From positions 1 to 61,592 of the IMG/VR virus record IMGVR_UViG_3300032561_000023: a stretch of DNA of 61,592 bases. One strand, 5' to 3'. Below are positions 24,701 to 60,171 of the stretch, piece after piece. Within the stretch, counting starts at the first letter, position 1; the number at the start of each line of letters is the position of its first letter. Under the pieces are notes generated by a model. That model saw only the letters and a program-made list of their open reading frames with translations, was not told where the DNA came from and did not search any database. Source of the stretch: a virus (Duplodnaviria; Caudoviricetes). Both the position numbers and the translations under genes were made by a program.

Positions 24701-27700
24701 AGCAAGTTCTAACTCTACTGCAAGTAATAATAACGCAATTATTATTCCAACAACTACAACAGCTGGTACAGTTTTAAGTCCAATGGGAACAACAACTGGT
24801 ACATGGCTTGCAGGTATGGCATTAACTAGTACTGGTACTGTAACATCTGGTACCTGGGTAACTGCTCTTAATGCTGGTACAGTAACAACAACCGGTATTG
24901 CAAGTACTGTTGCAAGTACAACAGGTACAATTGGTGCATCAATTACAGGTTCAGGTACATTTGCCAGTCCATGGGTTGCAACAATTAGCGGTTTAAGTAG
25001 TGTTGCAACATTCGTAGTTGGCGCACAAATTACTGCAACATCAGGAACAGGTACATTATATGGTAGTACACCAACTAGTGTAACAGTAACAAGTATTGTT
25101 AACTCAACAACTATTACATATTCTGTAGTTGGCGGTACAACACCAACAGCAGGTACAGTAACCAACATCAGTCAAACTGTATTGACAGCAAGCGCATCGA
25201 GCAACTTGTTACCAGGTATGGCTTTAACTGGCGGTGCTGTAACAGCAAGTTATGTAGCTGGACAGATTAGTTCAACAGGTACAGCATTAGCAACAGCATT
25301 GTTCACTGGAACAACTGGAACTAACACAATCGTTCTAAGTTCGTTCACAGTTGGTACTATTGCTTCTGTGGCAGTTGGACAATTTGTTGCTCCAATAGCA
25401 GGTATTCCAGCTAACACATTTGTTACAGCGGTTAACACAACTACAAGCACAATCACTATTAGTGCTAACTTGTATAGTTCAATTTCTGGATCAACTAGCA
25501 CTTATGCGGCTGGTACTGGTGCTGGAACTTATGCGTTAACTCCGTTAACAACTGGTACAATTACTGGAACACCAACTACAGGTACAAGTTATTCAGTAAG
25601 TATTACTCAAACACAGGCCGCGGCTACTGTAACCGGTACGCAAAACTCAATTACAGTTGGTAGTACAGCTGGTATGGTTGCAGGCGAATCAATTGTATTC
25701 ACTGGAACAAGTTTTGGTAACATTGTAGCAAGCACAACATACTACATTACTGAAGTTATTAGCTCAACATTGTTATCAGTTAGTTCAACTTACGGTGGTA
25801 CAAACTTTGTAGTAACTGCTGGTTCAGGTACAATGACTGCAACTGCTGGTTCTGTACTAGGCGGTTTAACTTCAGGTACAACATATTATGTTGTAAGTGT
25901 AAGTGGTAACCAAATTACAGTAAGTTTAAGTAACACATTAACTCCAGTATACTCTGTATCAAGTGGTAACGGTTCATGGAATAGCTTAACTGGTAACAAC
26001 TTTGCGGCAACAAGTTGGGATGGTTTAAACTGGACTCAACAGTTATTGCCAACAAACGCAAGTTGGAGTGCTCCAGCATTTGGTAATATTCAAGCAAGTA
26101 ACGTTGGATATAATCCATTATGGGTAACACTAGCACAGGCTGTACCTGGTACAATTATTTCTGTAGCAAGTTCATCTGGTACAACATTAACTTTAGGCTC
26201 TGCGGCTACACTAGTTGCAGGCCAAGCAATTACATTTGGTACAAGTTTTGGTAACATTGTTGCTGGAACAATTTACTATGTACAAGCATCCATTACTTCA
26301 AGTACAAGTTTAACAATTAGTGCAACATACCTAGGAGGTGCGTTCACAGTTGGAACAGCATCTATTGCAAGTATTGGTACTGTTCTATCTACAACTACTG
26401 CGGCAAGTATGCATACTGGCGCAACACCATTAGGTCGTGCAAAAGTAGCAAGTGGTGCAATTACTGAAATTCGTATGATTGAACCAGGTAGCGGTTTCCC
26501 TAAAGGTAACGTTACTGCAACTACATCAGGAACTAACATTATTACTGTAGATAATACAGAAAACTTAATTGCTTTACAACCAGTAGAGTTTAATACAGTT
26601 AGTGCTGGAGGTTTATCAGTTCAAACAACTTACTATGTAATTGGTTCAAGCATTACTTCTAACTCGTTCCAAGTTGCGGCATCGGCGGCTCTAGCGACAA
26701 TTGGTACAGCAGTAACTTTAACAACAAGTAGTCCAACTGGAATGATTTATACGGCTAGTCCGATTGTAACTATTACTGATCCAAACCACGTTAATACTGC
26801 GGCTACTCGTGTACGTACAGGCGACGGTGTACTAGGTAACCCAAGTTTCCCTAACCGTGGTGCTGGTAACGCGACTGCAACTGCAAGTTCAGGTGGTGAT
26901 GGTTATGCAGATATCTATCAAAACACAGCATACATTAACATCGCTGGATTATATGCAATTCCACAAGCTGGTGCAAACGTACAGTTCTCAAATATTCCAA
27001 ATGCTTGGTACAAACTAGTTATTGTAACCAACCAGTTGGGACAAGCAGGAAACTACACAGCACAGTTCCAAGTTAGCCCAAGTTTAACAACTTACCTTGC
27101 TCCAAACCATGGTGTACTAGTTACAACAAGATTGAAGTACAGTCAGGTTCGTTTAACTGGACATGACTTCTTGTATGTAGGTTCGGGTAACCAAACACAA
27201 ACAAACTATCCAAACGTTACAACTGCTAACGCAATACAAGCCAACCAAACATTCCCAAATATTGGTGGTCGTGTGTTCTTTACAGCTACTGACCAAGACG
27301 GTAACTTTAACGTTGGTAACTTGTTCGGTGTACAACAAGCGACTGGTACTGCTACATTGAATGCTAACGCATTTAACTTAGCTGGTTTGCAGAGCTTGAC
27401 ACTTGGTTCTGTTAACTTAGGAGTTGGTTCAGCAACTATTACACAATTTAGTACTGATCCTTACTTTACTGCTAACAGTGACAACATTCTACCAACACAA
27501 AAGGCTATTAAGAGCTTTATTACAGCCCAAATTGGTGGCGGATCAAGTAGTTTGAACGTAAATACACTAACATCTGGTCAAATCTATGTTGCAAATAACA
27601 GCATTTCTAACATTAACGGAACCCAGATTTATGTCAGCAGTAAAATGCTGTTCACAGGCGGAATTGATGGGGCACCTGTTGCTCTTGTATTCTTTGCATC

Positions 27701-27707
27701 AAGATAA
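15744..27707 (+). CDS. Giant modular virion structural protein (3987 aa), paralog of 7376..15709
   Basis: Same N-terminus (EFK.GR..F...G.W), same domain order and near-identical C-terminal block (GRVFFTATDQDGNFNVGNLFGVQQATG). Confidence 0.75.
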   Translation: MAEFKLGRIKFVYQGTWTIGTSYVVDDVVTVGGKTYICTQSNTASALFATDLNSGYWSIVADGSRWTGNWANSTYYLVGDQVLYGGIIYQCTTAHTSASSTATLTATAATANGTTATITFNALSSNIQPFLVGASITVSGFTAQSAFNGTYTVTACTPTTVSYALSQTLTGTVMGTVSGTGTLGLEVNQTSWTAFANNLNWTNTWSTNTRYKVRDLVSYGGYTYLCNTAHVSANTTASGLEANQSSWDVFNAGIAYQGAWSGSSVHYRLNDIVKYGASLWICTTPHTSTSTFATANFSVFVNGLEYVTGSWSGSTTYVTGDIVNYGGNLYTAIAVNTNQIPSTQSASWQIFNQGFSFVGDWSNALSYKVGQVVRQGGYTYLCTADNTVLTITATATTSGTNSVTVSSTTGLAAGVPIIFTGTSFGNITSGTQFYILSVIDSTHITLSATSGGAVLNVTSATGSLTGVTQVQPPFTGYWTRLNSGIRWNPGTATYTNIAGTNITGSGTGATFDITASKTYYTVTVHSGSAGSGYASTNTIKILGSQVGGISPANDITITVTGVSTGAISTITSTGYSVTWVSGATYVLGDTVYFGANTYICVSAHTSLTGNRPDNDATGAYWNVLASGAESAVLTTQGDMFYYGSTGPTRLPIGTDGQVLRVNGNVPAWQYYGQINNIVYVGPAGVDTVAASQGTSIDKPWATIRYACYQVENGYLNTNSTALLQLNKQFLLKEINNYVYYQYSFNVTGTSSTTLTVGGSSSVAQTTTTNMYVGMPIVFTTSSGSIVAGTVYYVQAIGSSTTFSISATFGGSVFTVGTGTANVGTYSYNQAKTERDTGIIVDGLISDIGRGGTLKTTQAVQAYFATSSSFATNVNSYDIVPFVSALNYLGTLAGNVLANTAPGTNYQTVLGVPSGSRAQQQINTTYTAETTIPARILQLLAIITGPLQLGNTNSLLPAVTPNTTIFVKTGTYNEVLPIVVPAYTAIIGDELRGTVVQPANANLNLVNDRPKSINSLTRIQSLIPNLLQNTVITGTTGNTQVLATTATTGTGTVATISFATQTSAPFVVGQYITVSGVTPSGYNGSYVVTAVTTNSVSYANTTTASQSVAGIVSSQVTGLPAGDVGSTTAVNTVNTNVQLINNMIYNGLPQTPAFSIPAVTNYNTYYLNGFSYGVTQLQNNYNFIKAEIAAYLNTYYSSVWTTFGSTNQTETLRDVGFVVDGLQYDMAYGCNNQSIINGSSYYSLNIPQILTAYSPATVGALQRLQAIVSQIVQGQSVTATSGNSVTQSTGGSAGSAAAGAFAGARVADVIYWLQNGYANSTVNNITGSISGTTLTVTAATSTVATGALLTGTVLTTTATATNSGTGLVSLASTTGLSAGMAITFTATYGSGNQSTFGGLSQTTYTINTVSAGSGVTLYNYGTSTPATLTTGTGLMTATAGVAPGTYIVNQITSIASAQAATTLASGGSSGTNTFVVSSATGIAAGQLVTGTGIPAGSYVISTYTSGTTVTLVTAAGAPSNFTTNGSGAYLFYPAGSTGTYTVNVSQTITGIALSTNATFTPITSGAFSFASSTALQTAYNALVARQSEIASDAQAWVAKYNQAYNISATLSNRDAGYISTALAYDILFGSNFNSIACGRAFNRLNTSAQALLANTNNELYATTGAITFIGFKAKEIAASGATVQASTLIDDIVTKINGQVTTTLSTATTSTNVLTVASTTGMAVNMPITFTGLPSPITTTATITATSTNLITVANSTGFAVGQQIYFTSTVFGNIVPSQLYYIASLSGSTITVSLTYGGAAVALVNGTGSMNVTVNNAGGLWNNNTYWINSIPSGTTITITNSFKSGTPYTITNTVTSMTAAVTAGATVTWPYSNNPMINGSLTYNDTLTTIQGAEILRANISFLAYEAAAYTLASYGGTVTATTSSTNVFTTSSNHNFVVGDPVVFSGTVAGGVVAGTTYYVLTVPNSTTFSVSSTQAGTGTQAALSLTTTSSDSFTVSYYYNTAKCVRDTTNFINALIYDLNYTGNYKSMRAAELYVNAITGSLTQNFYLVRNACGIRNQTMNGLTGTLSSANAYGTKRPTAGAYTSLDPGFGPNDSNSWVFSRSTFVQNCTMFGYACSGAKVDGALHAGGYKSMVANDYTCVIGDGIGWWTTGTGSLSELVSVFNYYSYAGYLSELGGRIRATNGNSSYGTYGVIAEGVDTYETPIYGTVNNRSFGPQITNVLTDSTTQILRLEYENAGQNYTNAVPVVSGSGYNIISYQDEYRDAAVFETRLIDLNNGQGVGGSAYVSAVNVGQTNTLGVGYHQIAAADTALTSAYNGMRILITAGTGVGQYANILTYTNGSKIAQIVRPTFVTLTVTGSTTTVLQVASTSTLYVNQPIYLSATTAGVFSAYTVYYVQSIPNLTTFTLSATSNGAAITGLTSTSAQTISLYAAGWDHVVPGTPINNTTDLTSAYIIEPAVSYTSPGYTATARTLSSSVNWSSVASGAGYYMAVATASTATAYSTTGKTWTAGGALPSSTTWNNVVFGGGSGAQATVTLGGFGGSGAVLTATLGSGLTAGQVVSVTVVNGGYNYTTAPTVQFVGSGTGAAATAVVLNGVIQSVTVTVNGSGYASAPTVNVVTSAVTAVTPITWGRGYQTTPTVVIAPPFSGTVWSNGGSVTSGQYYYYYYATTQATNYYLATSSGTFSSTPPSFTSGTGASGTYGVNLTYVGTQATVTPTLTNTGVSSYAINQIGYGYTSTPTITITDLAAKFVAISGTTATAYLAPSSIGSAWTAGNGLPTAGFTGLAYGNGVYVAVGIYSGTSAIASSTDGITWVNRTAPGVATQVYSSVAFGQMGPGSSATTTGMFVAVTSGSNVTAYSTNGVSWVAGGNLPSVASWSSVTYGNGRFVAVASGSNLTAYSNNGGVTWYASTANGGSNLPLSQNWSGVKYAEGLFVATATSPTPTVTTTTPVSNVITLSSTAGINIGNTFVPTAVTQSTTATASSNSTASNNNAIIIPTTTTAGTVLSPMGTTTGTWLAGMALTSTGTVTSGTWVTALNAGTVTTTGIASTVASTTGTIGASITGSGTFASPWVATISGLSSVATFVVGAQITATSGTGTLYGSTPTSVTVTSIVNSTTITYSVVGGTTPTAGTVTNISQTVLTASASSNLLPGMALTGGAVTASYVAGQISSTGTALATALFTGTTGTNTIVLSSFTVGTIASVAVGQFVAPIAGIPANTFVTAVNTTTSTITISANLYSSISGSTSTYAAGTGAGTYALTPLTTGTITGTPTTGTSYSVSITQTQAAATVTGTQNSITVGSTAGMVAGESIVFTGTSFGNIVASTTYYITEVISSTLLSVSSTYGGTNFVVTAGSGTMTATAGSVLGGLTSGTTYYVVSVSGNQITVSLSNTLTPVYSVSSGNGSWNSLTGNNFAATSWDGLNWTQQLLPTNASWSAPAFGNIQASNVGYNPLWVTLAQAVPGTIISVASSSGTTLTLGSAATLVAGQAITFGTSFGNIVAGTIYYVQASITSSTSLTISATYLGGAFTVGTASIASIGTVLSTTTAASMHTGATPLGRAKVASGAITEIRMIEPGSGFPKGNVTATTSGTNIITVDNTENLIALQPVEFNTVSAGGLSVQTTYYVIGSSITSNSFQVAASAALATIGTAVTLTTSSPTGMIYTASPIVTITDPNHVNTAATRVRTGDGVLGNPSFPNRGAGNATATASSGGDGYADIYQNTAYINIAGLYAIPQAGANVQFSNIPNAWYKLVIVTNQLGQAGNYTAQFQVSPSLTTYLAPNHGVLVTTRLKYSQVRLTGHDFLYVGSGNQTQTNYPNVTTANAIQANQTFPNIGGRVFFTATDQDGNFNVGNLFGVQQATGTATLNANAFNLAGLQSLTLGSVNLGVGSATITQFSTDPYFTANSDNILPTQKAIKSFITAQIGGGSSSLNVNTLTSGQIYVANNSISNINGTQIYVSSKMLFTGGIDGAPVALVFFASR

Positions 27708-27729
27708 AACATTATTGGAGAAATAAAAA

Positions 27730-28068
27730 ATGGCTGGATCAGGAAATAAAGCAACGACACAATTAAACGCAGGTAGCCAAACAGCTTACAGTTTAATTTA
27801 CACAGTACCAACAGGCTACTATGGTGTTTATAACATTTCGTTTACAAACACAAGTAGCTCTGCGGCAACTATCAGATTATATATTGGAGCAAGTACAGCG
27901 GGTTCACAAAACGCAAGCGAATGCTACGAATATCTAACTACAGTTGTAGGCTATGGTGTATTTGAACGTACTGGTATTGTTATGGCCGCAGGTGCTAACA
28001 TCGTTGCATCTTCAAGCATTGCCGGTGTGAACGTTAACGTTTACGGCATTGAAACATCAACATCATAA
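27730..28068 (+). CDS. Small beta-rich structural protein (paralog 3 of 3)
   Basis: 112 aa with GGAG SD. Sequence IYTVP...NISFTNTSSSAATIRLYI...ERTGIVM. Confidence 0.55.
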   Translation: MAGSGNKATTQLNAGSQTAYSLIYTVPTGYYGVYNISFTNTSSSAATIRLYIGASTAGSQNASECYEYLTTVVGYGVFERTGIVMAAGANIVASSSIAGVNVNVYGIETSTS

Positions 28069-28092
28069 TCAGGAAATAAGCGAGAATAAAAT

Positions 28093-30036
28093 ATGGCACG
28101 TTATAATACCACACTAGCGACAGAAATAGTCTCTGGAGCACAAACACTCTTGTCACCAGCACAAGGTGGATACACAGAATTTCAAGGTACTGCACCTTAT
28201 ACTGTAACAATTCCAGGACCATCGTTGTTCCTAGGTCAGACACAAAGTTATTTTAATAACACATCTGGCATAGTTACACTTCAAACGCCAGCTGGTGTCA
28301 TTAACGGTCCTGGTTCAACAAGTTCTAACACAATAGCTTTGCCAGCAGGTAGCAGTATTATTATTGCATCTGATGGCACAAACTACAGCGTTATTACTTT
28401 TCCAGGCGGCCCACAATATGGAGTTACTGGAACATTTTCAAGCGATTTAATTAGTACCAACACAGGTACTGTTAACGTTTTTAATACTAACGCAACAGCA
28501 ATCAACGCATTTGGTAATGCAAGTACAATTAACATTGGTTCAAGTACTGGTACAACAACAATTAATAACTCACTATTAGTTAAGGGCGGTATTACTACAG
28601 TTAACTCAAGTTCAGTATTAGTTGAAGACAAGAACATTGAAATTGGTTATGTTAACCCAGTTAGTTATGGTGGCGGTACTATTGGTACTATTACTGGTTC
28701 ATTGGGCTCGAGTACAACATTTACAAGTATTACTGGTACTAAAGTAACAGCCGCAAGTACATATAGTGGTGTTAGTCAATTCGCAACAAGTGGTGTTGGT
28801 ACCGGTGCAACATTTAACATAACAACTACTGGTGCAGGTACAACATATACTGGCGTAACTACAATTACATTAGTTAACCCGGGTTCAGGATATGCAATTA
28901 ACGATACAATTACTATTGGTGGTAGTTCTTTAGGCGGTACAACTAGCCCAAACAACTTAACATTTACAGTTAGTAACGTAATTTACTCACCATGGACTGC
29001 AACTGTTACTCTTATGACCAACACAACCAACTTGGTCGCTGGTCAATCAGTTAGTGCAACTAACGGTACAGGTAGCTTAGGAGGCGGCGGTACAAGTTAT
29101 ATTATTTCTAACGTTCCAAGTTCAACAAGTATACAAGTAACTGCAACAGGTGGTACAACTCCAACAGCAGGTACTATTACAGCAATTATTCCAGGTAGTG
29201 CTGATACATTTGCCAACGGCGGCGGCATTAAATTATACGGATCAACTAATCACTTATTAACATGGAACAGCGCCGCAAACGGACCAGCTAACGGTAACCA
29301 AAACCCAGCATGGGTAAGTACTGAAGGTTTAATGATTAGTACTTCTAACGGTTTTGGTATTCAAAATACCGGTAACGTTAACTTTAACATTTTAACCAAC
29401 GGACAGGCAACAGGTACTGTATCTATTGCAACTAACGCGGGTACAGGTAACTTGTTTACTAACGCAAGTTCGGGCGTTTCAATTGGTGCTAGCGGTGGTA
29501 CTGCTACAATTAGTAACACTAACCTTACAGTTGGACAGTCTGGTGGTACAGTTACTTTCAACGGTATTACAACTTTCACAATGAACAGCGTAACATCGTT
29601 TAACTTAACTGGCGGTGGTACAATGAACGCTGGTAGTACATATGGTTATTTTAGTTCTCTAGGCGTTGGTACTAACACTAACGGTGGCGGCGGTACAATT
29701 TATGCTTCAAACAACATTGTTGCTTACTATTCTGATGATAGATTAAAGACACGTTTGGGCAAAATTGAAGATGCTCTTGCTAAATTAGAAACATTAAATG
29801 GTTTCTACTTCGAAGCTAACCAAACTGCTCAAGATTTGGGCTATACCGTTCAACGTGAAGTTGGAGTTTCGGCTCAAGAAGTCAACGCAATCCTGCCAGA
29901 AATTATTAAACCAGCTCCGATTGACGCTAAGTACATGACAGTTCAATACGAAAAGTTATTACCTTTAGTAATTGAAGCAGTTAAGGAATTGTCAGCCCAA
30001 GTTAAAGAATTGAAAAAACAAATTAACAAAGAGTAA
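28093..30036 (+). CDS. Tail fibre protein with C-terminal intramolecular chaperone (peptidase S74-like)
   Basis: C-terminus YSDDRLKT...GVSAQEV..ILPEII...V.YEKLLPLVIEAVKELSAQVKELK is the S74 autocleavage/coiled-coil signature. The shaft is Gly/Thr-rich. Confidence 0.85.
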   Translation: MARYNTTLATEIVSGAQTLLSPAQGGYTEFQGTAPYTVTIPGPSLFLGQTQSYFNNTSGIVTLQTPAGVINGPGSTSSNTIALPAGSSIIIASDGTNYSVITFPGGPQYGVTGTFSSDLISTNTGTVNVFNTNATAINAFGNASTINIGSSTGTTTINNSLLVKGGITTVNSSSVLVEDKNIEIGYVNPVSYGGGTIGTITGSLGSSTTFTSITGTKVTAASTYSGVSQFATSGVGTGATFNITTTGAGTTYTGVTTITLVNPGSGYAINDTITIGGSSLGGTTSPNNLTFTVSNVIYSPWTATVTLMTNTTNLVAGQSVSATNGTGSLGGGGTSYIISNVPSSTSIQVTATGGTTPTAGTITAIIPGSADTFANGGGIKLYGSTNHLLTWNSAANGPANGNQNPAWVSTEGLMISTSNGFGIQNTGNVNFNILTNGQATGTVSIATNAGTGNLFTNASSGVSIGASGGTATISNTNLTVGQSGGTVTFNGITTFTMNSVTSFNLTGGGTMNAGSTYGYFSSLGVGTNTNGGGGTIYASNNIVAYYSDDRLKTRLGKIEDALAKLETLNGFYFEANQTAQDLGYTVQREVGVSAQEVNAILPEIIKPAPIDAKYMTVQYEKLLPLVIEAVKELSAQVKELKKQINKE

Positions 30037-30039
30037 AAA

Positions 30040-30429
30040 ATGACAACACCTTCCGGAACAATATACATCAGCCAAGTTGACGGCGAAATTGGACTACCAA
30101 ATAGTAGTCCATATTCTAACCTAAGTTTCTTGAACGGCTATGTTATTCCTGGTCAGCGCGATTCATATCCTGATATGAACGAAATGCGTAACAGAGCATA
30201 CTACCAGTCAAATAACAAAGGCAACTGTAACAACGGTAACTGCGGAAATTGTAATTGTAATTGCGGTAATATCTGTTGCTATAACTGTTATATTAATGGT
30301 CACATTAATTGTACAAACTGCGACGGACAAAACTGGTTACAAAACAACTGTAATTGTAACTGTACCTATAATTGCAATTATGCTTCAGGATCATATAACT
30401 GTAATTGTAATTGTAACTGTAATTGTTAA
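30040..30429 (+). CDS. Cys/Asn-rich protein; putative radical SAM substrate or fibre-tip protein
   Basis: 129 aa. No Cys in residues 1-62, 19 Cys in residues 63-129, 17 of them as Asn-Cys. Starts 3 nt after the fibre gene and lies directly before the rSAM gene. Confidence 0.75.
   Translation: MTTPSGTIYISQVDGEIGLPNSSPYSNLSFLNGYVIPGQRDSYPDMNEMRNRAYYQSNNKGNCNNGNCGNCNCNCGNICCYNCYINGHINCTNCDGQNWLQNNCNCNCTYNCNYASGSYNCNCNCNCNC
30397..30426 (+). repeat. Coding hexamer tandem repeat (AAYTGT)x5 encoding NCNCNCNCNC
   Basis: aactgt aattgt aattgt aactgt aattgt immediately before the stop. Shorter runs near 30247-30264 and 30346-30363. Confidence 0.85.
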
Positions 30430-30445
30430 CAAGACAAGGAACAAC

Positions 30446-31924
30446 ATGATTTTTGAAATTCTGGCAGAAAGATATGGTACTGGCGTTACCGATCAAAAGA
30501 CATTTTTTTACGATAACGAAAAAAATATCTTAAGTGATGAAACTGGTTATATCTGGGAATATCCTAACACCTACGCTAATTCAACATTTATACAAGATGT
30601 TCCATATAAGCCATTTGATAAAAATAATCCTTTGAAAAAATCAAAGGATGTACGTACAGTAAAAATTCAAATGGGGTTATCTTGTAATTACAGTTGTGAT
30701 TATTGCAGTCAGAAATTTGTCGAACGTCCACGTGAAACTAACGCTAAAGATATTGAAAACTTTATGGAGTTATTCAATAACTTAAATTTTAGCGAAGATC
30801 GTGGATTACGTGTTGAGTTCTGGGGCGGCGAGCCATTTGTTTATTGGAAAACAATGAAACCATTGGCCGAAGCTATTGCAGAAAGATTTAAAGACTGGAA
30901 AAATAAACCATCATTTAGCGTTATTACTAATGGTAGTTTGTTAACAGAAGAAAATTGTGCATGGTTATATAGCATGGGATTCCACGTTGCTGTCAGTCAC
31001 GACGGTCCTGGACAATTCACTCGCGGACCAGACCCGTTTGAAGATCCTAAAAAACGTGAAGTTGTATTAGATTTATATCAAATTTTACGTCCTTTAAACC
31101 GTATGAGCTTTAACTCTATGTTAAGTTATAAAAATCAAAGTCGTAAAGCAATTTATGATTGGTTTGTCGACTTTACAAATGATCCAAGTGTATTGTTAGG
31201 CGAAGGAACATTTGTAGATGCATACGATGAAGACGGTTTAGAAAATTCACTTAAAACAAAAGCAGATCATTTTGCCTTTAGACAACGTTCTTTTGGGGAA
31301 ATATTTGGAACTAATGGAGAAATTGGTTTTACAGGTATACTTGGTAAGATTGATAATTTTACAGAAGACTTGTTAACACATCGAGAAGCAGATTATCTCG
31401 GTCAAAAATGCGGCATGGACAGTGAAGAAACTGTTGCATTTGACCTACGTGGAAATGTAATTACATGTCAAAACGTAAGTGCATTAGAAACAGGTAAAAA
31501 TGGTGAACCACATTTAAGCGGTAACATTGCAAATATCGAAGATGTTTCAATTTCAACAAGTACACACTGGTCAAACCGTAAAGAATGTCCAGAGTGCCCC
31601 GTATTACATATTTGTAAAGGTGCATGTATGTTCTTAGATGGCGTTTACTGGAAAGCTAGTTGTAACAATGCCTACTCAGATAACGTGCCATTGTTCGCCG
31701 CAAGTATTGAAAAAATTACAGGCTACATTCCTGTATTAATTAAGAGCGATACATTACCTTTAGATCGTCAAGATATCTGGGGTAATATATACAAACACGA
31801 AGAAGAACAACCAAAGAAAATTATACCAATTAAGGTAGTCAGTGAAAAAGTTGCGGTAATCGATAACATCGAAGTTTACGGCAAAAGTTCCCTGATAAAT
31901 ACTACAGAAGAATCAGGAGCATGA
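30446..31924 (+). CDS. Radical SAM enzyme with SPASM domain (peptide/protein maturase type)
   Basis: Motifs CNYSCDYC, FWGGEP, ITNGSLL and VSHDG. SPASM Cys set KCG..ITCQ..CPECPVLHICKGAC..C. Start moved to ATG 30446 (AAGGA SD), giving 492 aa. Confidence 0.92.
   Translation: MIFEILAERYGTGVTDQKTFFYDNEKNILSDETGYIWEYPNTYANSTFIQDVPYKPFDKNNPLKKSKDVRTVKIQMGLSCNYSCDYCSQKFVERPRETNAKDIENFMELFNNLNFSEDRGLRVEFWGGEPFVYWKTMKPLAEAIAERFKDWKNKPSFSVITNGSLLTEENCAWLYSMGFHVAVSHDGPGQFTRGPDPFEDPKKREVVLDLYQILRPLNRMSFNSMLSYKNQSRKAIYDWFVDFTNDPSVLLGEGTFVDAYDEDGLENSLKTKADHFAFRQRSFGEIFGTNGEIGFTGILGKIDNFTEDLLTHREADYLGQKCGMDSEETVAFDLRGNVITCQNVSALETGKNGEPHLSGNIANIEDVSISTSTHWSNRKECPECPVLHICKGACMFLDGVYWKASCNNAYSDNVPLFAASIEKITGYIPVLIKSDTLPLDRQDIWGNIYKHEEEQPKKIIPIKVVSEKVAVIDNIEVYGKSSLINTTEESGA
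31896..31901 (+). promoter_or_regulatory. Late-promoter-like TAAATA box inside the 3' end of the rSAM gene
   Basis: GATAAATA 24 nt before ATG 31926, with AGGAG SD in between. Confidence 0.45.
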
Positions 31925-31925
31925 A

Positions 31926-32846
31926 ATGAATTTATACTTGGCAAACGGAACTAACAGATTATATGCATTATCAATTCAACTTGACGAGTCAAGTTTGACT
32001 TATAAGACATATGATGTGTATGAAACAATTAAATTAAAGCAATTCTGGGAAACACAAACAGGTAACGTATTACCTGGATCTTTATTTGATAAAGCACCTA
32101 CACCTGCTATAACACCTGCATGGGTTACTGAAACATATTCAGTTTACGAAAGCCAATCACCTGAATCGCAAACTATTAATTTTTCGGACATTCAAGGTTT
32201 ATCTGATTTTTCAGATCACGGTATTTTCATGTTGTATTCACCAGATTCTCCGTCTTATGTTTCTCCGATTAGACCAACGGCTCCTTCTTCGGTGCCAGCA
32301 GGAAAAACATCGATTAGAGTTCCACTTCATAACGGATACGCACTGACTACTGGTTCAAAAATGAGTCCATTTGTTCATAGTGCATTTAATAACAATATTG
32401 CTATGATTGCAATATGTGTGCCATTTGCAAGTGCTCCAGTTGATCAATGGTCAATTGTGTTTAACGTGAAAGATTCTAGTTTGTTTAAGTTAACATCTGG
32501 ACAAGCAACAACACCAATGCAAGGAAATAGCGTTGGTAAATTTACAAAAAGTTTATTACCTAAAGTATGGTTTACTAATAAAACTATGACTGTAACTGCT
32601 GATGGATTTGTTGATGTTCCTTTTTACTTAGGAGATTCAACAGGAAATCCTATCACACAATCAGATGCAACTGTATATTTGAAAACCACAGCAGGACAGT
32701 TAAACAAACAACAAGTTACCACAATTAATGGTCAAGGTACTGTTCGTTTAATTGCAAGTCATTTAGTTTCTGGAGAAACTGCAACTATTAGTTGCGGATT
32801 TAAATTATTCTCGGGAACAGACGATTGCGTTGTCACTGTAAATTAA
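31926..32846 (+). CDS. Hypothetical protein with probable C-terminal Ig-like beta-sandwich
   Basis: 306 aa. The C-terminal ~95 aa alternate like Big-1-type strands (GNPI....VYLKTTAGQLN..QVTT.NGQGTVRL). Confidence 0.55.
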   Translation: MNLYLANGTNRLYALSIQLDESSLTYKTYDVYETIKLKQFWETQTGNVLPGSLFDKAPTPAITPAWVTETYSVYESQSPESQTINFSDIQGLSDFSDHGIFMLYSPDSPSYVSPIRPTAPSSVPAGKTSIRVPLHNGYALTTGSKMSPFVHSAFNNNIAMIAICVPFASAPVDQWSIVFNVKDSSLFKLTSGQATTPMQGNSVGKFTKSLLPKVWFTNKTMTVTADGFVDVPFYLGDSTGNPITQSDATVYLKTTAGQLNKQQVTTINGQGTVRLIASHLVSGETATISCGFKLFSGTDDCVVTVN

Positions 32847-32853
32847 GGAAAAT

Positions 32854-34065
32854 ATGAAAATAGGAATTGTAGGTTCTGGAACCGCCAGCGCAGTTTCACT
32901 ATTAAAAATATTTGAACAACTCGAAAAACATCAATGTAAGCATGTTGATGTTTTTTGCATTTATGATCCTAACATTCCTATCACTACGGTAGGGGAAAGC
33001 ACTAGTTCGTTATTGCCAATCTTGTTATACAACGTAGCAAATTTTTCAATAACCGAAGAAATGCAACATTTTGATGGTACATTAAGATGGGGTACTCGAT
33101 ACTATTGGAAAGATGCTAACGATACAGAGTTTTTTGTTAAAAACGGTATACCAGGTTTGCACGTTAATAGTGAAAAATTTAGTAGATTTGTAATTAATAG
33201 GCTAGATGAAATTTACGAAAACTTTAGCCAGATACATGGCAACGTATCTAGTATGACACAAGATGCATATAAAGTTACGGCAGTCATCGATGATGTTGAA
33301 CATAAATTTGATTTTTTAATCGATTGCAGAGGAAATCCAACAGAAGAAGAATTGAATAGTGGCGCATACAGCTTTCCTCAATTTGAAACAGTTAATTCTG
33401 TTATATTATATCCAGATTTTAAAGAATATAATGAAGATATTACATCAGCGTATGTACATGAAGATGGGTGGATGTTCGGAGTTCCACTAACACATCGAAA
33501 AGCGTTTGGATATTTGTACAATAAAAACTTTACAAGTCACGAAGAAGCAAGTGAAAAATTTGCAAAATTAAAAGGTATCGATACAATTAATCTAAGAAGA
33601 TTCAGTTGGAGACAGTATTATAAAAATACTGCTATGGACGGAAGAATTATGTCTATGGGAAATCGATTACAATTCTTTGAACCTGCACAAGCATTGCCGT
33701 TACATTATTACATTAATTTAACAATGGAATTCATTAGTCGAATTATTAATAATAATTTAGACGTACATAAGATGAATATACAATTAAATTTTGACCATAG
33801 AAAAAATATAGAAGGAATGCAAAATTTAATTGCATTAAATTATTGCGGGTCTTGTAATATTAAAAGTCCGTTCTGGGAATATGCTACAATTAACTCAAGA
33901 AAACGTCTAAAAAATTCTCAACAGTTTCAACAATATTTAAGAGACTGTGAAAAATCTGAAAAAATTGAAATATACTGGTGGCATAACGCCCAGTTAATGA
34001 AAGAATACATTGACGGATTTGGAATTAAATTAGATCAACTAAGTCAAAAACAGTCTGCAACTTAG
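32854..34065 (+). CDS. Tryptophan-halogenase-like flavoprotein (divergent)
   Basis: Motifs IGIVGSGTAS, VGEST, FDFLIDCRG, GWMFGVPL..R..FGYLY and GNRLQFFEP follow the PrnA-family order. Confidence 0.8.
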   Translation: MKIGIVGSGTASAVSLLKIFEQLEKHQCKHVDVFCIYDPNIPITTVGESTSSLLPILLYNVANFSITEEMQHFDGTLRWGTRYYWKDANDTEFFVKNGIPGLHVNSEKFSRFVINRLDEIYENFSQIHGNVSSMTQDAYKVTAVIDDVEHKFDFLIDCRGNPTEEELNSGAYSFPQFETVNSVILYPDFKEYNEDITSAYVHEDGWMFGVPLTHRKAFGYLYNKNFTSHEEASEKFAKLKGIDTINLRRFSWRQYYKNTAMDGRIMSMGNRLQFFEPAQALPLHYYINLTMEFISRIINNNLDVHKMNIQLNFDHRKNIEGMQNLIALNYCGSCNIKSPFWEYATINSRKRLKNSQQFQQYLRDCEKSEKIEIYWWHNAQLMKEYIDGFGIKLDQLSQKQSAT

Positions 34066-34474
34066 TTCTTATTGTTTTGCTACTAAAACTGTTACGTAAC
34101 CCTTGGTGCAAAGGTTTAGGAGCACGATCGATAGTAGTCCATGCCCATCCAATATGTTCGTCACTTAGTGTTGGAATAAATTCAGATTCTATCACACACA
34201 AGTATGTGTGGAAATTAAAAACTTTGTCGTTACTAACAAATGTTTCTAGAGGTATAGTTTTAATTATATTAGGTACAGCGCCTATTTCTTCTTTAATTTC
34301 ACGTTGTAAACCTTGCCAAGGTGTTTCTCCAGTGATATTAGTACCACCTACTAGCCCCCAAGTGCCTTCGTGTTTACCGTGACTTTTTTGAAGAAGTAAA
34401 AATCGTTGTGTAGACTTTGCATAAAACAATGCACCACTACAAACAATTTGTTCTTTTACAATACTATTTTCCAT
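34025..34474 (-). CDS. Nudix hydrolase
   Basis: Nudix box GGTNITGETPWQGLQREIKEEIG; LSDEH..WAW. Exact start uncertain. Confidence 0.9.
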   Translation of the reverse strand: MENSIVKEQIVCSGALFYAKSTQRFLLLQKSHGKHEGTWGLVGGTNITGETPWQGLQREIKEEIGAVPNIIKTIPLETFVSNDKVFNFHTYLCVIESEFIPTLSDEHIGWAWTTIDRAPKPLHQGLRNSFSSKTIRTKLQTVFDLVDLI

Positions 34475-35916
34475 TGGCCGGCACCATATTCACCTTCAAA
34501 GCTCTTAACCCATGAAACACCATTCCATGTGTATTGAACTCCAGTGTATATATTCGTTTGCCATACCATAGTATCCGATTCTTGACTTGCATTAAAAATA
34601 ACATGCCATGCAGATCCGGTATATTCTATAATATCGTTTGCATGTGCTACTAAATTACCCCACACAACCGCAGGTGTTGTATTGCTTGCATTTCCAATAT
34701 CTTCAATAATTAAATATCTAGTACCAGCAGTAGGGCTATTAGGTGTATATGTTTGTGGATTAATAATAGCATCAAATGTACCAGGACTGTTTGGTCTATA
34801 ACTAGTAGATGCATTATATCCAGCATCTGTTTCTAGTTTACCAGTACTATCTATACCAGTATTTGATGTAAGTGTATCTGGATTCCAATTAACTTGTAGT
34901 ACTGTTGGGTTAGTAGGATTAACAGCAATAGTTCCGATAACATAAGTACCATTCGGTTGCAATAAGTATAGCATACTCGATCCTGCAACATATTGACCAG
35001 TGAATAATTGGAACAAACTTAACCAATCTTGGGGCGTACCGGTGGCTGTTGGAATACTCAGTGTTGGTTCTGGAGGAACTATACCTGCTGTACTTTCTAA
35101 TAATGTTGCTTGATTGTCGTAAACTTGAATTTTAAATCCGGTAACAGTAACAGTTTCTGAAGAAATTAAATCACTAAAAGACGGACTATTTCCATCTGTT
35201 TGCAATGTTGGATCTATACCAAGTCCATCAATGTACCCTGCAGGATAATTTGAATTGTTGCTGTATAAACTTGTGATAATTTTTGTAATAACACCAAGAT
35301 GTTTGACCTTAACTGGAGGACTAATCCATATAGGAGTATCTAAAGTCAGCGTTGCAACATCAATTGGAGTATCGGTACCAACGGGCACTTGTTTACTACC
35401 CCATACTACGTCACCTAAATTAAGAACAGTTAAGCTGGTCCAGTCAATGTAGTTGTCTGTAGTTTGTAATTCTAAACTAGGATTGAATAATACCAATACT
35501 TGTTCAAGTATTTGTAATTTTTGATCAGTACTACTTGTCCAAATATCGCATTTCATTTTTAAATTAAACGGAGTTGGCATTAGGCGTTCAACAGTATAGT
35601 TACGTCCTTGCGCTCCAGTATAACTTCCATCGTTAACATCTCTTTCACGGAAATTTAATTTTCCAACATACGTTTGATCAGCAAGACGATTGCGGTCTAA
35701 TTCTAAACCTGTTATGTAAACACTAATACGTGGAATACTATTAACAGCATTTTCACTGTTCATACGCATGATACTAGCTACTTGTCTGTCTGCATCTCCG
35801 TACAAAACAGGTACTTGATGTAGTGTTCCGTCACCATATTTGACCACAAAATTGCTAAACACACGCATTGTTTGTGTCAAATATCTTCTTACTTGTCCGT
35901 CATAGAACCATTGCAT
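34456..35916 (-). CDS. Tail sheath stabiliser / tail terminator (T4 gp15-like) with C-terminal extension
   Basis: Motifs FYDGQVRRYL..F, VPVLYG, PRISVYITGLELD..R, MPTPFNL and QILEQVLVLFNP. Adjacent to the neck genes. Confidence 0.75.
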   Translation of the reverse strand: MQWFYDGQVRRYLTQTMRVFSNFVVKYGDGTLHQVPVLYGDADRQVASIMRMNSENAVNSIPRISVYITGLELDRNRLADQTYVGKLNFRERDVNDGSYTGAQGRNYTVERLMPTPFNLKMKCDIWTSSTDQKLQILEQVLVLFNPSLELQTTDNYIDWTSLTVLNLGDVVWGSKQVPVGTDTPIDVATLTLDTPIWISPPVKVKHLGVITKIITSLYSNNSNYPAGYIDGLGIDPTLQTDGNSPSFSDLISSETVTVTGFKIQVYDNQATLLESTAGIVPPEPTLSIPTATGTPQDWLSLFQLFTGQYVAGSSMLYLLQPNGTYVIGTIAVNPTNPTVLQVNWNPDTLTSNTGIDSTGKLETDAGYNASTSYRPNSPGTFDAIINPQTYTPNSPTAGTRYLIIEDIGNASNTTPAVVWGNLVAHANDIIEYTGSAWHVIFNASQESDTMVWQTNIYTGVQYTWNGVSWVKSFEGEYGAGQWKIVL

Positions 35917-58469: not shown

Positions 58470-58976
58470 ATGCAGATATTAACATTAGACAACGAGATGT
58501 TCTCATTGAACAACTTACCAGAGGAAGTAGACGAAAATACAAGATTCGCAGTATTAGATAACAGTTCGCCAGACGATCCGGATTTCTTATTCATGCCTTT
58601 AATATTCCTGGAAAGTTTTAACGCTCCAGCTATGGTCTTAAGAATCGGCAATGATGAAATTGCAATGCCAATAGATTGGTCAATTGCTGTGGGTGATAGT
58701 CAAAGCGGATGTGACATTGAAATTTTACCGTTAACTAGTTTAAATGACAGAGGTTTTGAAGCATTGTGTTTCAATCCACTAAGCTCGTTTAGGGTAGAGT
58801 TTAAAAAGATTGAAATTGTAAATTTTTACAATGATGTTAAATGGTATTTTCCTAAAATGAAAAATAGTCAATTATTAGCGACTCCATTACAACAAGGAAA
58901 TAAACCAGACTGTGTATATTTTGTCAAAGAAATCAGTAGACAAAATGAAATTATTCAATTGGATAAAATATTATGA
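58470..58976 (+). CDS. Hypothetical protein
   Basis: 168 aa with AAGGA SD, acidic and beta-rich. Confidence 0.6.
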   Translation: MQILTLDNEMFSLNNLPEEVDENTRFAVLDNSSPDDPDFLFMPLIFLESFNAPAMVLRIGNDEIAMPIDWSIAVGDSQSGCDIEILPLTSLNDRGFEALCFNPLSSFRVEFKKIEIVNFYNDVKWYFPKMKNSQLLATPLQQGNKPDCVYFVKEISRQNEIIQLDKIL

Positions 58977-59608
58977 CATTACAAGTAGCATATTTTCAAC
59001 CCGTAATTATGGCAATGGATACAGTACCGCCAGTAGAATTTAGCAAAATCTATGCCCTTGCTGAAGAGCTACATCGCCATCCGGAATTGAATGATAGTGG
59101 TAATCCTATGCTTAGTATTCGAGGCGGTCAGCAGATACATGTATACCCTAATGATTTAAATTTAGATGTTACATGGCTTAAAAATTGGTTAGAAAGTATC
59201 TGTCAAGGTTACATGGAACTAGTGACACAACAATCAGGCCATCAAGAGTTAAAGATGTGTAAACCAGTTATCGGAAGTATCTGGACCATTAGACAAGAGT
59301 CAGGCGATTATCAAGAAATTCATACACATCCAAATGCTCATCTAAGCGGGAATATCTATATCAGTGCTCCGGAATTAGACGACGAAACTAAAAATCCAAC
59401 GGACAGTCAAGTTGTTTTCCAACTGCCTCAGAACAGAGATTTAACAAAATTTATCATGCAGGATACATGGAAATATACTCCTACTCCTGGAACTGTAATT
59501 TTATTTCCAAGTTATATTCCACATACAGTTTATCCTTGGAAGGGTGTTGGATCACGGTTAGTTATGGCATTTGATGCAAAATTATTCCCTAAAGACGAAC
59601 AAGTATGA
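58973..59608 (+). CDS. 2OG-Fe(II) oxygenase-like protein
   Basis: W......GDYQEIHTH....LSG.IYI, P.PGTVILFPSYIPHTVYP and R...AF. Confidence 0.8.
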   Translation: MTLQVAYFQPVIMAMDTVPPVEFSKIYALAEELHRHPELNDSGNPMLSIRGGQQIHVYPNDLNLDVTWLKNWLESICQGYMELVTQQSGHQELKMCKPVIGSIWTIRQESGDYQEIHTHPNAHLSGNIYISAPELDDETKNPTDSQVVFQLPQNRDLTKFIMQDTWKYTPTPGTVILFPSYIPHTVYPWKGVGSRLVMAFDAKLFPKDEQV

Positions 59609-60171
59609 AATTAATTCCGCTCGGTATTCAAATTTATCAAAGCAAGATTTCTCAAGAATTTTACGATTTCTTGCTGAATGAATATGAAAATAATTTAGAG
59701 TCTTACGAACAATTACATCAGAATGAAAACTTCTGGGATGGTGCAGATTTTTCATTTTTAAAGGAAGAACACAAGGATTATATTGAAAAAAACATCCAGG
59801 TACATGTAACAGAATACATTGGAAATAACATTTTAAAGTTGAAAAAACAATGGATTAATGTACAAGCACATGATGGATTTTTGCCTTTACATAATCATTT
59901 TGGAACTTTATCTTATGTAATCTATTTAAAAACTCCTAAGTATCGAGCTAACTATTTGAACAAAAGACGTCAACAAATTGACTATACGGAAGGTTCCATA
60001 CAATTTACATACGGGCATACAAATAGTTTATTTCCAGCACATGCACTTGTGCAACCAGAAGAAAAAATGATTTTAATTTTTCCTGCTGAGATAATGCATT
60101 ACGTCTATCCATTCAGGGATCGCGAAAGTAAGCGGGTGTCAGTTAGCGGAAATTTGCATAAGGATACATGA
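59605..60171 (+). CDS. 2OG-Fe(II) oxygenase-like protein
   Basis: WINVQ....FLPLHNH.G.LSYVIYL, ILIFPA...HYVYPF and RVSVSGN. Confidence 0.8.
   Translation: MKLIPLGIQIYQSKISQEFYDFLLNEYENNLESYEQLHQNENFWDGADFSFLKEEHKDYIEKNIQVHVTEYIGNNILKLKKQWINVQAHDGFLPLHNHFGTLSYVIYLKTPKYRANYLNKRRQQIDYTEGSIQFTYGHTNSLFPAHALVQPEEKMILIFPAEIMHYVYPFRDRESKRVSVSGNLHKDT

Follow-up and report, generated by a model that had tools for sequence, protein, structure and literature searches.

A gene for an asparagine- and cysteine-rich protein of 129 aa, and the gene for a radical S-adenosylmethionine (rSAM)/SPASM enzyme that follows it, were investigated in a 61.6-kb IMG/VR virus record (IMGVR_UViG_3300032561_000023), the whole of which is referred to here as the window. 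Once loci with identical cores are collapsed, 101 loci carrying the Asn/Cys protein are left, and 100 of them also have the enzyme. The interpretation favoured on balance is that the 129-aa protein is a fibre-tip accessory protein, which docks through its N-terminal module and has its Asn/Cys domain stapled in place by the rSAM/SPASM enzyme.

Association of the enzyme with the Asn/Cys tract

Starting from the protein, 86 IMG/VR stretches with a relative were found, of which the best 80 were kept. In 79 of these 80 loci there is an rSAM homologue (42–75% identity) on the same strand, directly upstream or downstream in most, and it lies within approximately 2.5 kb of the Asn/Cys gene in 76 of the 79. 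The one locus without the enzyme (L068) is on a contig that ends about 100 nt past the Asn/Cys gene. Starting from the enzyme, a search with an alignment of its homologues identified a relative in at least 552 IMG/VR stretches and in six contigs from bacterial genome bins. A set of 85 enzyme-anchored loci (77 of them new ones from IMG/VR, six from genome bins, and two from cultured phages) was then inspected for an Asn/Cys tract, defined as at least four (N/D)C dipeptides within 24 aa, on the same strand and beside the enzyme. Exactly one open reading frame (ORF) of this kind is present in 79 of the 85. Of the six other loci, five are on contigs that break off at the enzyme. The remaining one is that of Ralstonia phage RSP15, where the fibre gene two genes upstream of the enzyme encodes a short Asn/Cys-containing C-terminal tail that is below the tract threshold.

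Gene order and the remaining neighbours vary among at least five cassette types. Because the enzyme is kept despite these changes, the linkage is likely to be functional rather than merely inherited. The original prediction had placed the neighbouring rSAM enzyme in a functional relation with the tract, and the counts from both directions (100/101 and 79/85) bear this out; the Asn/Cys tract is therefore strongly indicated as the substrate of the enzyme. Genes for proteins of approximately 240–276 aa directly upstream of the rSAM gene in phages JWF and RSP15 were also considered as substrates and ruled out, as their products are not Cys-rich.

The radical SAM/SPASM enzyme

The enzyme contains a CxxxCxxC motif (C80/C84/C87) and a seven-Cys SPASM motif (C322, C341, C381, C384, C390, C394, and C406). 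All ten of these cysteines are invariant in 11 diverse homologues with 42–69% identity, and the enzyme profile aligns across the SPASM part of the anaerobic sulfatase-maturating enzyme 4k36. The listed ORF start at 30296 overlaps the Asn/Cys gene and was rejected in favour of the ATG at 30446, which has AAGGA upstream and fits better.

Among solved structures and curated families, the closest relatives of the enzyme cross-link peptides or proteins. The PapB model matches with an expect value (E) of 9e-20 (71.2 bits against a cut-off of 340), the QhpD model TIGR03906 with E 8e-16 (57.8 bits against 453), the SCIFF maturase model with 44.5 bits (cut-off 425), and the anaerobic sulfatase-maturating enzyme model with 41.3 bits (cut-off 349); the best NCBIfam score among the 25 of 55 matched models listed is 73 bits against a cut-off of 400. 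The solved structure 5wgg, presumably CteB, is matched at E 8e-10. The PapB and 5wgg matches cover only the N-terminal rSAM core. No sulfatase is annotated among the neighbouring genes in general Pfam and PHROG scans. In two loci, L063 (1485–2933) and L064, the rSAM tblastn match translates with one in-frame stop, which may mean that the gene is broken, that it is recoded, that the sequence contains an error, or that the coordinates extend past the end of the gene.

Composition and conservation of the Asn/Cys core

The gene is open throughout from ATG to TAA. All 19 Cys of its product are within residues 63–129, the first being residue 63, and residues 1–62 are Cys-free. A script counted 17 Asn-Cys dipeptides and ten overlapping NxxC positions (65, 70, 72, 77, 103, 105, 120, 122, 124, and 126), read the C-terminal end as NCNCNCNCNC, and found mixed codon usage for both residues (Asn, AAC 17 and AAT 14; Cys, TGT 14 and TGC 5). 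Every figure agrees with the counts made previously from the sequence alone, and the bipartite build described then is real and family-wide in the alignment. The ten NxxC registers follow automatically from the NC repeats and so carry no evidence beyond them. The core (residues 59–129, 71 aa) contains 25 Asn in addition to the 19 Cys, and its 17 NC dipeptides compare with a shuffle mean of 6.7 (standard deviation 1.8). Since none of 20000 composition-preserving shuffles reached 17, the residue order of the core is non-random, as well as its composition.

Comparison with the orthologue in locus L010 shows 58 identical codons, 53 with synonymous differences only, and 17 with non-synonymous differences, the core accounting for 27 of the synonymous and 11 of the non-synonymous ones; this excess of synonymous change points to purifying selection on the protein. 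The last 31 nt (30396–30426) are a 6-nt tandem repeat of 5.2 copies with 88% match, and there are seven terminal NC units in the L010 orthologue versus five in the window protein, therefore slippage probably sets the length of the tail. Among metagenome proteins, 61 homologues were found, down to 38% identity. Six positions (C63, N65, C83, C91, Q101, and N105) never vary across the resulting 62 sequences, and conservation reaches at least 90% in 25 more columns. Judged from these sequence comparisons, this is a real conserved gene and not a slippage artefact, with the body of the core apparently under purifying selection and only the tail length drifting. The original prediction that selection, rather than slippage alone, has shaped the repeats thus holds for the core body, supported by the codon differences and the conserved columns. 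The residue preceding Cys across the family is N in 813, A in 104, D in 75, and Q in 40 of 1076 cases (1032 for the four together).

In AlphaFold2 models made with the family alignment, the block-mean predicted local distance difference test (pLDDT) score is 72–86 for residues 1–60. For the core it is 32–51, with one block at 69, and it is below 50 for residues 61–88 and 104–129. A folded N-terminal module beside a core without a predicted fold is what would be expected if the core needs covalent bridges or metal.

A megablast search of 28000–34500 against cultured-phage records, among which near-identical entries may be missing, returned no meaningful match with the low-complexity filter on, and tblastn searches of the same records with the whole protein and with residues 1–62, also filtered for low complexity, returned either no match or matches at chance level (E 6–8). 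ESM Atlas look-ups matched only viral clusters without names, and the 129-aa protein has no direct PHROG match. The NC-repeat DNA (window 30395–30429) also matches other contigs in four lake runs at a depth of 19–266, compared with about 5 for the window phage, and some of these abundant contigs carry two NC-repeat tracts approximately 590 nt apart. Other abundant lake entities therefore also encode NC repeats.

The N-terminal module and its association with fibre genes

When 1.8 billion representatives were searched with a profile of residues 1–56, 958 proteins matched at E ≤ 1e-3. Of the 150 matches listed, 148 begin at residue 1 and the other two at residues 2 and 20. These 150 include 144 new proteins, 111 of which have at least 120 aa; 62 of the 111 are NC-rich and 45 are Cys-poor. 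The Cys-poor proteins are matched by the profile at E 1e-7 to 1e-9. Their first 55 or so residues match phrog_26817/phrog_26746, their C-terminal parts match tail-fibre or virion PHROGs, and the domains found at their C-termini are Gly_rich_2, Fibrinogen_C, Laminin_G_3 plus DUF7483, or Collar.

For the Cys-poor set, 80 loci were fetched, 68 remained after dereplication, and 63 have a same-strand upstream ORF within 300 nt. In at least 27 of the 63, this upstream ORF has a match to 'long tail fiber protein distal subunit' PHROGs, and in 26 to 'tail fiber protein' PHROGs; these are the same PHROGs as are matched by the 647-aa fibre of the window. In the window, the Asn/Cys gene starts 3 nt past the stop codon of that fibre gene. 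Among the Asn/Cys relatives themselves, 15 of 101 sit directly downstream of an ORF with an S74 domain.

Based on homology and gene position, this N-terminus marks small proteins that are encoded just after distal-fibre genes and whose C-terminal binding domains appear to be swappable. The resemblance to N-termini of small proteins downstream of phage fibres, which the original prediction had put forward, is thereby substantiated by the profile matches and by the neighbouring genes and C-terminal domains alike. For this window, it can be proposed with moderate confidence that the 129-aa protein is located in the virion. The words 'precursor' and 'leader', as used previously in the sense of a ribosomally synthesised and post-translationally modified peptide (RiPP), are less apt, no protease or exporter having been recognised among the conserved neighbour clusters that are annotated.

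Architectures of the relatives

Four architectures were found among the relatives. In the first, the protein stands alone, as in the window, and has 125–173 aa. In the second, present in 10 of 62 homologues, the core is followed by an S74 domain, with the junction straight after the last core Cys, where ..C-F-W gives way to S-D-D-x-L-K. Trp is the last residue in 24 of 52 stand-alone homologues; as this is the residue at the S74 junction, the stand-alone form looks like a cleaved product. In the third, a Hint domain (PF05203, E as low as 5.5e-10) follows the core. In the fourth, a domain of approximately 170 aa with a hydrophobic tail comes after the core, an arrangement present in at least 38 of 101 loci. 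The 129-aa window protein itself ends at the core and has no S74 or Hint domain.

In JWF gp028 and in loci L031, L059, L065, and L071, the N/D-C tract passes at its last core Cys straight into an intein-like Hint domain. Achromobacter phage JWF gp028 (L002:3799–5250) is a tail fibre that lacks the N-terminal module and has tail-fibre PHROG matches, its N/D-C run is directly before the Hint domain, and the enzyme is encoded two genes downstream. The 170-aa domain (L003:2328–3227 and about 38 further loci, such as L021, L073, and L110) has a tail that resembles a membrane anchor, and in these loci the rSAM gene is always directly upstream; no Pfam, PHROG, or Atlas family was matched by this domain.

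Five Burkholderiales genome-bin loci encode fibres of approximately 320 aa, likewise lacking the module, with an NC/DC run at the C-terminal end, and in one locus a glycine-rich domain is inserted between the N-terminal module and the core. What is common to all partners of the enzyme is thus the terminal (N/D/A)C tract and not the N-terminal module, which argues against the module as a recognition leader. That the same rSAM family serves Asn/Cys tracts on fibres lacking the module likewise makes it unlikely that the enzyme recognizes its substrate there.

Genomic context and accompanying genes

The completeness of the window was estimated at 17% (CheckV). Near-identical sequence is present in runs from lake and freshwater metagenomes, and ten runs that are not flagged as possible sources contain at least half of the sampled words. 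Where covered in four of these, all lake runs, the Asn/Cys gene shows neither indel nor substitution; these comparisons are of contigs, from which rare variants are dropped. The gene lies among the tail and host-recognition genes of a large myovirus (Table 1).

Table 1. Features surrounding the Asn/Cys-rich protein gene in the window
Feature	Position (nt)	Strand	Evidence or remark
Two giant tail-fibre genes, 2777 and 3987 aa	7376..27707	+	phrog_9851 'tail fiber protein' in both, E 5e-113 and 1e-132
Small fibre-like protein, 112 aa	27730..28068	+	phrog_11338 'tail fiber protein', E 8e-5; syntenic in close relatives
Distal tail-fibre protein, 647 aa	28093..30036	+	Matches to long tail fiber distal subunit PHROGs and to tail fiber PHROGs
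N-terminal module of the 129-aa protein, residues 1–58, no Cys	30040..30213	+	Predicted small folded domain
Asn/Cys-rich core, residues 59–129, plus stop codon	30214..30429	+	Proposed rSAM substrate region
Radical SAM/SPASM enzyme, 492 aa	30446..31924	+	Pfam Radical_SAM and Fer4_12; phrog_1802, E 5e-60
306-aa protein, C-terminal Ig-like domain	31926..32846	+	AlphaFold2 mean pLDDT 77
Flavin adenine dinucleotide-dependent tryptophan-halogenase-like enzyme, 403 aa	32854..34065	+	PF04820, E 6.5e-29; phrog_2928, E 3e-51

The two giant fibre genes are adjacent and have similar N-termini, with phrog_9851 matched in several stretches of each. The 647-aa fibre has a C-terminal Peptidase_S74 intramolecular-chaperone domain at residues 547–604 (approximately nt 29731–29904; PF13884, E 2.5e-8, above the cut-off). 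Past the halogenase-like gene, the opposite strand encodes, in this order, a NUDIX protein, a gp15-like tail protein, a virion protein, and the sheath. In a promoter and terminator scan of 27000–35000 the counts were not above those of shuffles, and there was no attenuator behind the Asn/Cys gene.

Additional enzymes are frequent within 6 kb of the Asn/Cys gene. 2-Oxoglutarate (2OG)-Fe(II) oxygenases are found in 65 of 101 loci, an Asp/Asn beta-hydroxylase (PF05118; for example L003:4136–4909, E 1.4e-9) in 41, halogenase-like homologues in 26, including the window, and a second, different rSAM gene of approximately 500 aa (for example L016:5439–6968) in 25. Two small unannotated proteins are encoded in 42 and 41 of the 101 loci. 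A beta-hydroxylase in the same cassette as an Asn-rich protein hints that Asn might be hydroxylated as well. The window lacks a PF05118 gene. It does have two tandem 2OG-Fe(II) oxygenase genes at 58973–60171 (PF13759, E 7.5e-23 and 7.9e-16), approximately 29 kb downstream of the Asn/Cys gene. A fatty-acid-desaturase-like di-iron protein has 17 members (for example L005:5536–6261, PF00487, E 2.7e-12), and its gene sits between the rSAM gene and the Asn/Cys gene in some cassettes.

The halogenase-like enzyme is possibly a tailoring enzyme, and its membership of the system is uncertain; its presence is not associated with the choice of Trp over Tyr at the start of the conserved W/Y-L-Q motif, as Trp is found there in 16 of the 26 loci that have the gene and in 44 of the 75 that lack it. 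Homologues of the 306-aa protein occur in 14 loci, Burkholderiales genome bins included, in which the system is beside a fibre gene. This protein is homologous to gp047 of Ralstonia phage RSP15 (E 9e-8) and has no Pfam, PHROG, or NCBIfam match, with Foldseek returning only generic Ig-like/Big-domain structures at TM ≤ 0.29. As to proteases and exporters, several of the conserved neighbour clusters are without annotation, and none was recognised among those that are annotated.

Proposed mechanism and alternatives

It is proposed that the 129-aa protein would be a virion-associated tail-fibre accessory, encoded in the gene slot just after the distal-fibre gene. Residues 1–58 would fold into a small module by which phages repeatedly attach diverse binding domains to the fibre, and which here would carry a conserved Asn/Cys domain in place of a lectin-like or glycine-rich one. 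The adjacent rSAM/SPASM enzyme would modify this domain post-translationally. The most likely product would be several intramolecular thioether bridges from Cys sulfur to a carbon of neighbouring Asn, Asp, Ala, or Gln, so that a core for which no independent fold is predicted would become a compact knob or rod held together by covalent staples. The N-terminal module would probably stay on, and in relatives the self-cleaving S74 chaperone or Hint domain behind the last core Cys would probably be shed.

Thioethers are considered the most likely product because the nearest curated or solved relatives of the enzyme, although matched below cut-offs, are thioether-forming or protein-cross-linking SPASM enzymes; because the core lacks a predicted fold; and because the four residues that precede nearly all Cys in the family (1032 of 1076) are those that NxxcB accepts as thioether acceptors, namely Asn, Ala, Asp, and Gln, according to passages of PMC9389541. 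These points weakly suggest thioether chemistry, and a stabilising or receptor-binding role may be suggested no more strongly. Extended to the family, and more tentatively than for the window, it may be that phages in lakes and elsewhere (at least 552 IMG/VR contigs, as well as cultured Achromobacter and Ralstonia phages) covalently cross-link an Asn/Cys module with a RiPP-type rSAM/SPASM enzyme. The module would be at the distal end of the fibre or on a detachable fibre-tip protein, an Asn beta-hydroxylase, 2OG oxygenases, a halogenase-like enzyme, or a second rSAM would often join, and S74 or Hint would be shed after maturation.

Several observations weigh against the interpretation as a stapled fibre-tip protein. 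Many of the loci come from related lake phages, and the locus counts given here are not counts of independent events. The enzyme falls short of the NCBIfam cut-offs of all 25 maturase models listed, out of 55 matched, and with scores so far below the cut-offs its reaction is not readable from homology. For the N-terminal module no similar solved structure was found, a Foldseek search of the protein model against the PDB giving nothing significant; the Foldseek matches to Gp38-domain proteins were not significant either (E 1.5–2.8), and there is no Pfam Gp38 match. The main evidence against a universal structural role is twofold. Only 23 of 101 loci have an S74 domain, whether as a fusion, next to the gene, or in its vicinity, and most cassettes lie amid PhoH, purine-synthesis, DNA-binding, exonuclease, and oxygenase genes and not in a recognisable tail module. 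A non-structural role is possible in those phages. Finally, the conserved Asn/Cys pattern would suit a metal–thiolate cluster too.

The last point leads to the alternative that survives best, although it is considered unlikely. The Asn/Cys domain could be a metal-binding fibre tip in which CxC/NC coordinates Zn, Fe, or Fe-S, possibly between chains, while the rSAM enzyme modifies a single residue or another substrate. The HxH repeats of the T4 gp37 needle bind iron, and the protein described here is likewise at a distal-fibre position. The density of 19 Cys in 67 residues, their regular CxC spacing, and the failure of AlphaFold2 to give a core fold without cofactors are all compatible with metal. 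Metal binding alone, however, leaves the near-obligate linkage to the rSAM enzyme unexplained and does not account for Asn being conserved as strongly as Cys, and Pfam and NCBIfam scans matched no metallothionein or other metal-binding family. Metal binding and cross-linking are compatible with each other.

A classical RiPP pathway is less probable still. Here residues 1–58 would be a cleaved leader and the modified core would be released during infection as a diffusible peptide, such as an antimicrobial, a signal, or a metallophore. The enzyme is of the RiPP type, the protein has two parts, further tailoring-type enzymes (2OG oxygenase, beta-hydroxylase, halogenase-like, and second rSAM) are present in many cassettes, and most cassettes are outside recognisable tail modules. 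Against this, the supposed leader is a 58-aa domain confidently predicted to fold and common to hundreds of proteins with ordinary binding domains, while the same enzyme family is found beside Asn/Cys tracts that end fibres of 320–480 aa without any such leader. The core is strongly conserved, not hypervariable; the S74 and Hint fusions would cleave on its C-terminal side and not its N-terminal side; and the annotated neighbours offer neither a protease nor an exporter, although several clusters lack annotation. A disulfide-rich knob or a mere product of low-complexity slippage, with an unrelated rSAM gene next to it, was already disfavoured and is very improbable: the terminal hexanucleotide repeat does differ in copy number between orthologues, but the Cys pattern is position-specific and conserved down to the most distant homologues, synonymous codon differences outnumber non-synonymous ones by 53 to 17, the NC excess is far beyond that of shuffles, and the enzyme remains linked while gene order changes.

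Comparison with known systems

The known role of radical SAM/SPASM peptide maturases is to make small secreted natural products, and phage fibres are known to fold with chaperones and sometimes metal ions. The near-obligate pairing of enzyme and module would join these two fields. It would also suggest that the tip with which a phage recognises its host can be built or hardened by an enzyme that staples it covalently. If the interpretation extended to the family is correct, this would be the first enzymatically stapled, or thioether-laddered, receptor-recognition part of a virion. With its repetitive NC scaffold, the system makes a new rSAM reaction open to testing, and it provides a compact display module that may be very stable. 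Because cultured carriers exist, the idea is directly testable.

Full-text literature searches found no paper linking an rSAM enzyme to a phage fibre or to an Asn/Cys-rich phage protein. Arrays of dioxygenases and tryptophan halogenases are described in cyanophages (PMC2938197, in part), and 'radical SAM cassettes' are described in the host-recognition cluster of pelagimyophages (PMC7029224, in part). The relevant passages of these two papers name no substrate or Asn/Cys protein, and their supplements may list such neighbourhoods. The present system would give a substrate to these unexplained radical SAM cassettes and to the oxygenase and halogenase arrays of aquatic myophages.

With regard to fibre-tip proteins, the gp38-type adhesins of T-even phages (T2, S16) are the closest parallel in gene position. 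These are small proteins encoded right after the distal-fibre gene, in which the N-terminal part serves for attachment and the C-terminal part, which varies, for binding, and relatives of the N-terminal module described here also carry glycine-rich domains. The 129-aa protein differs from gp38 in having an Asn/Cys-rich C-terminal domain linked to an rSAM enzyme, as well as in lacking a Pfam or significant Foldseek match to it. The S74 chaperone cleaves itself from fibres, and Hint domains are autoprocessing. One or the other follows the core directly in a number of the relatives (S74 in 10 of 62, Hint in several), and the fibre upstream in the window has S74, whereas the 129-aa protein has neither.

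With regard to the enzyme, the ranthipeptide/SCIFF maturases (PapB and the CteB-type 5WGG), which make multiple thioethers in Cys-rich substrates, are its best curated and solved sequence matches, although its scores are far below those of family members. QhpD and its substrate QhpC provide the nearest functional analogy. This rSAM/SPASM enzyme staples QhpC, the small Cys-rich gamma subunit of quinohemoprotein amine dehydrogenase, with thioethers from Cys to Asp or Glu, and the subunit stays in a larger assembly. In the phage system the score against QhpD is far below the cut-off, there is no dehydrogenase context, and the putative substrate is a fibre accessory protein. The streptococcal NxxcA/NxxcB pair resembles the phage system in combining an rSAM enzyme that has auxiliary Fe-S clusters with Cys next to Asn, and the same four residues precede Cys; this likeness is one of substrate motif and enzyme cysteines. 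Instead of a short peptide with one motif from a quorum-sensing (shp/rgg) operon, the substrate here would be a 129-aa protein with a predicted folded N-terminal domain, 19 Cys, and NxxC ten times, encoded in the tail-fibre module of a lake myophage.

The phage system would thus work like QhpD/QhpC, the ranthipeptide systems, and NxxcB, yet it is below the curated cut-offs of the first two (PapB, SCIFF, and QhpD) and outside the described substrate and context of the third. What this comparison suggests to be new is the application of RiPP-type rSAM maturation to a fibre module of the virion.

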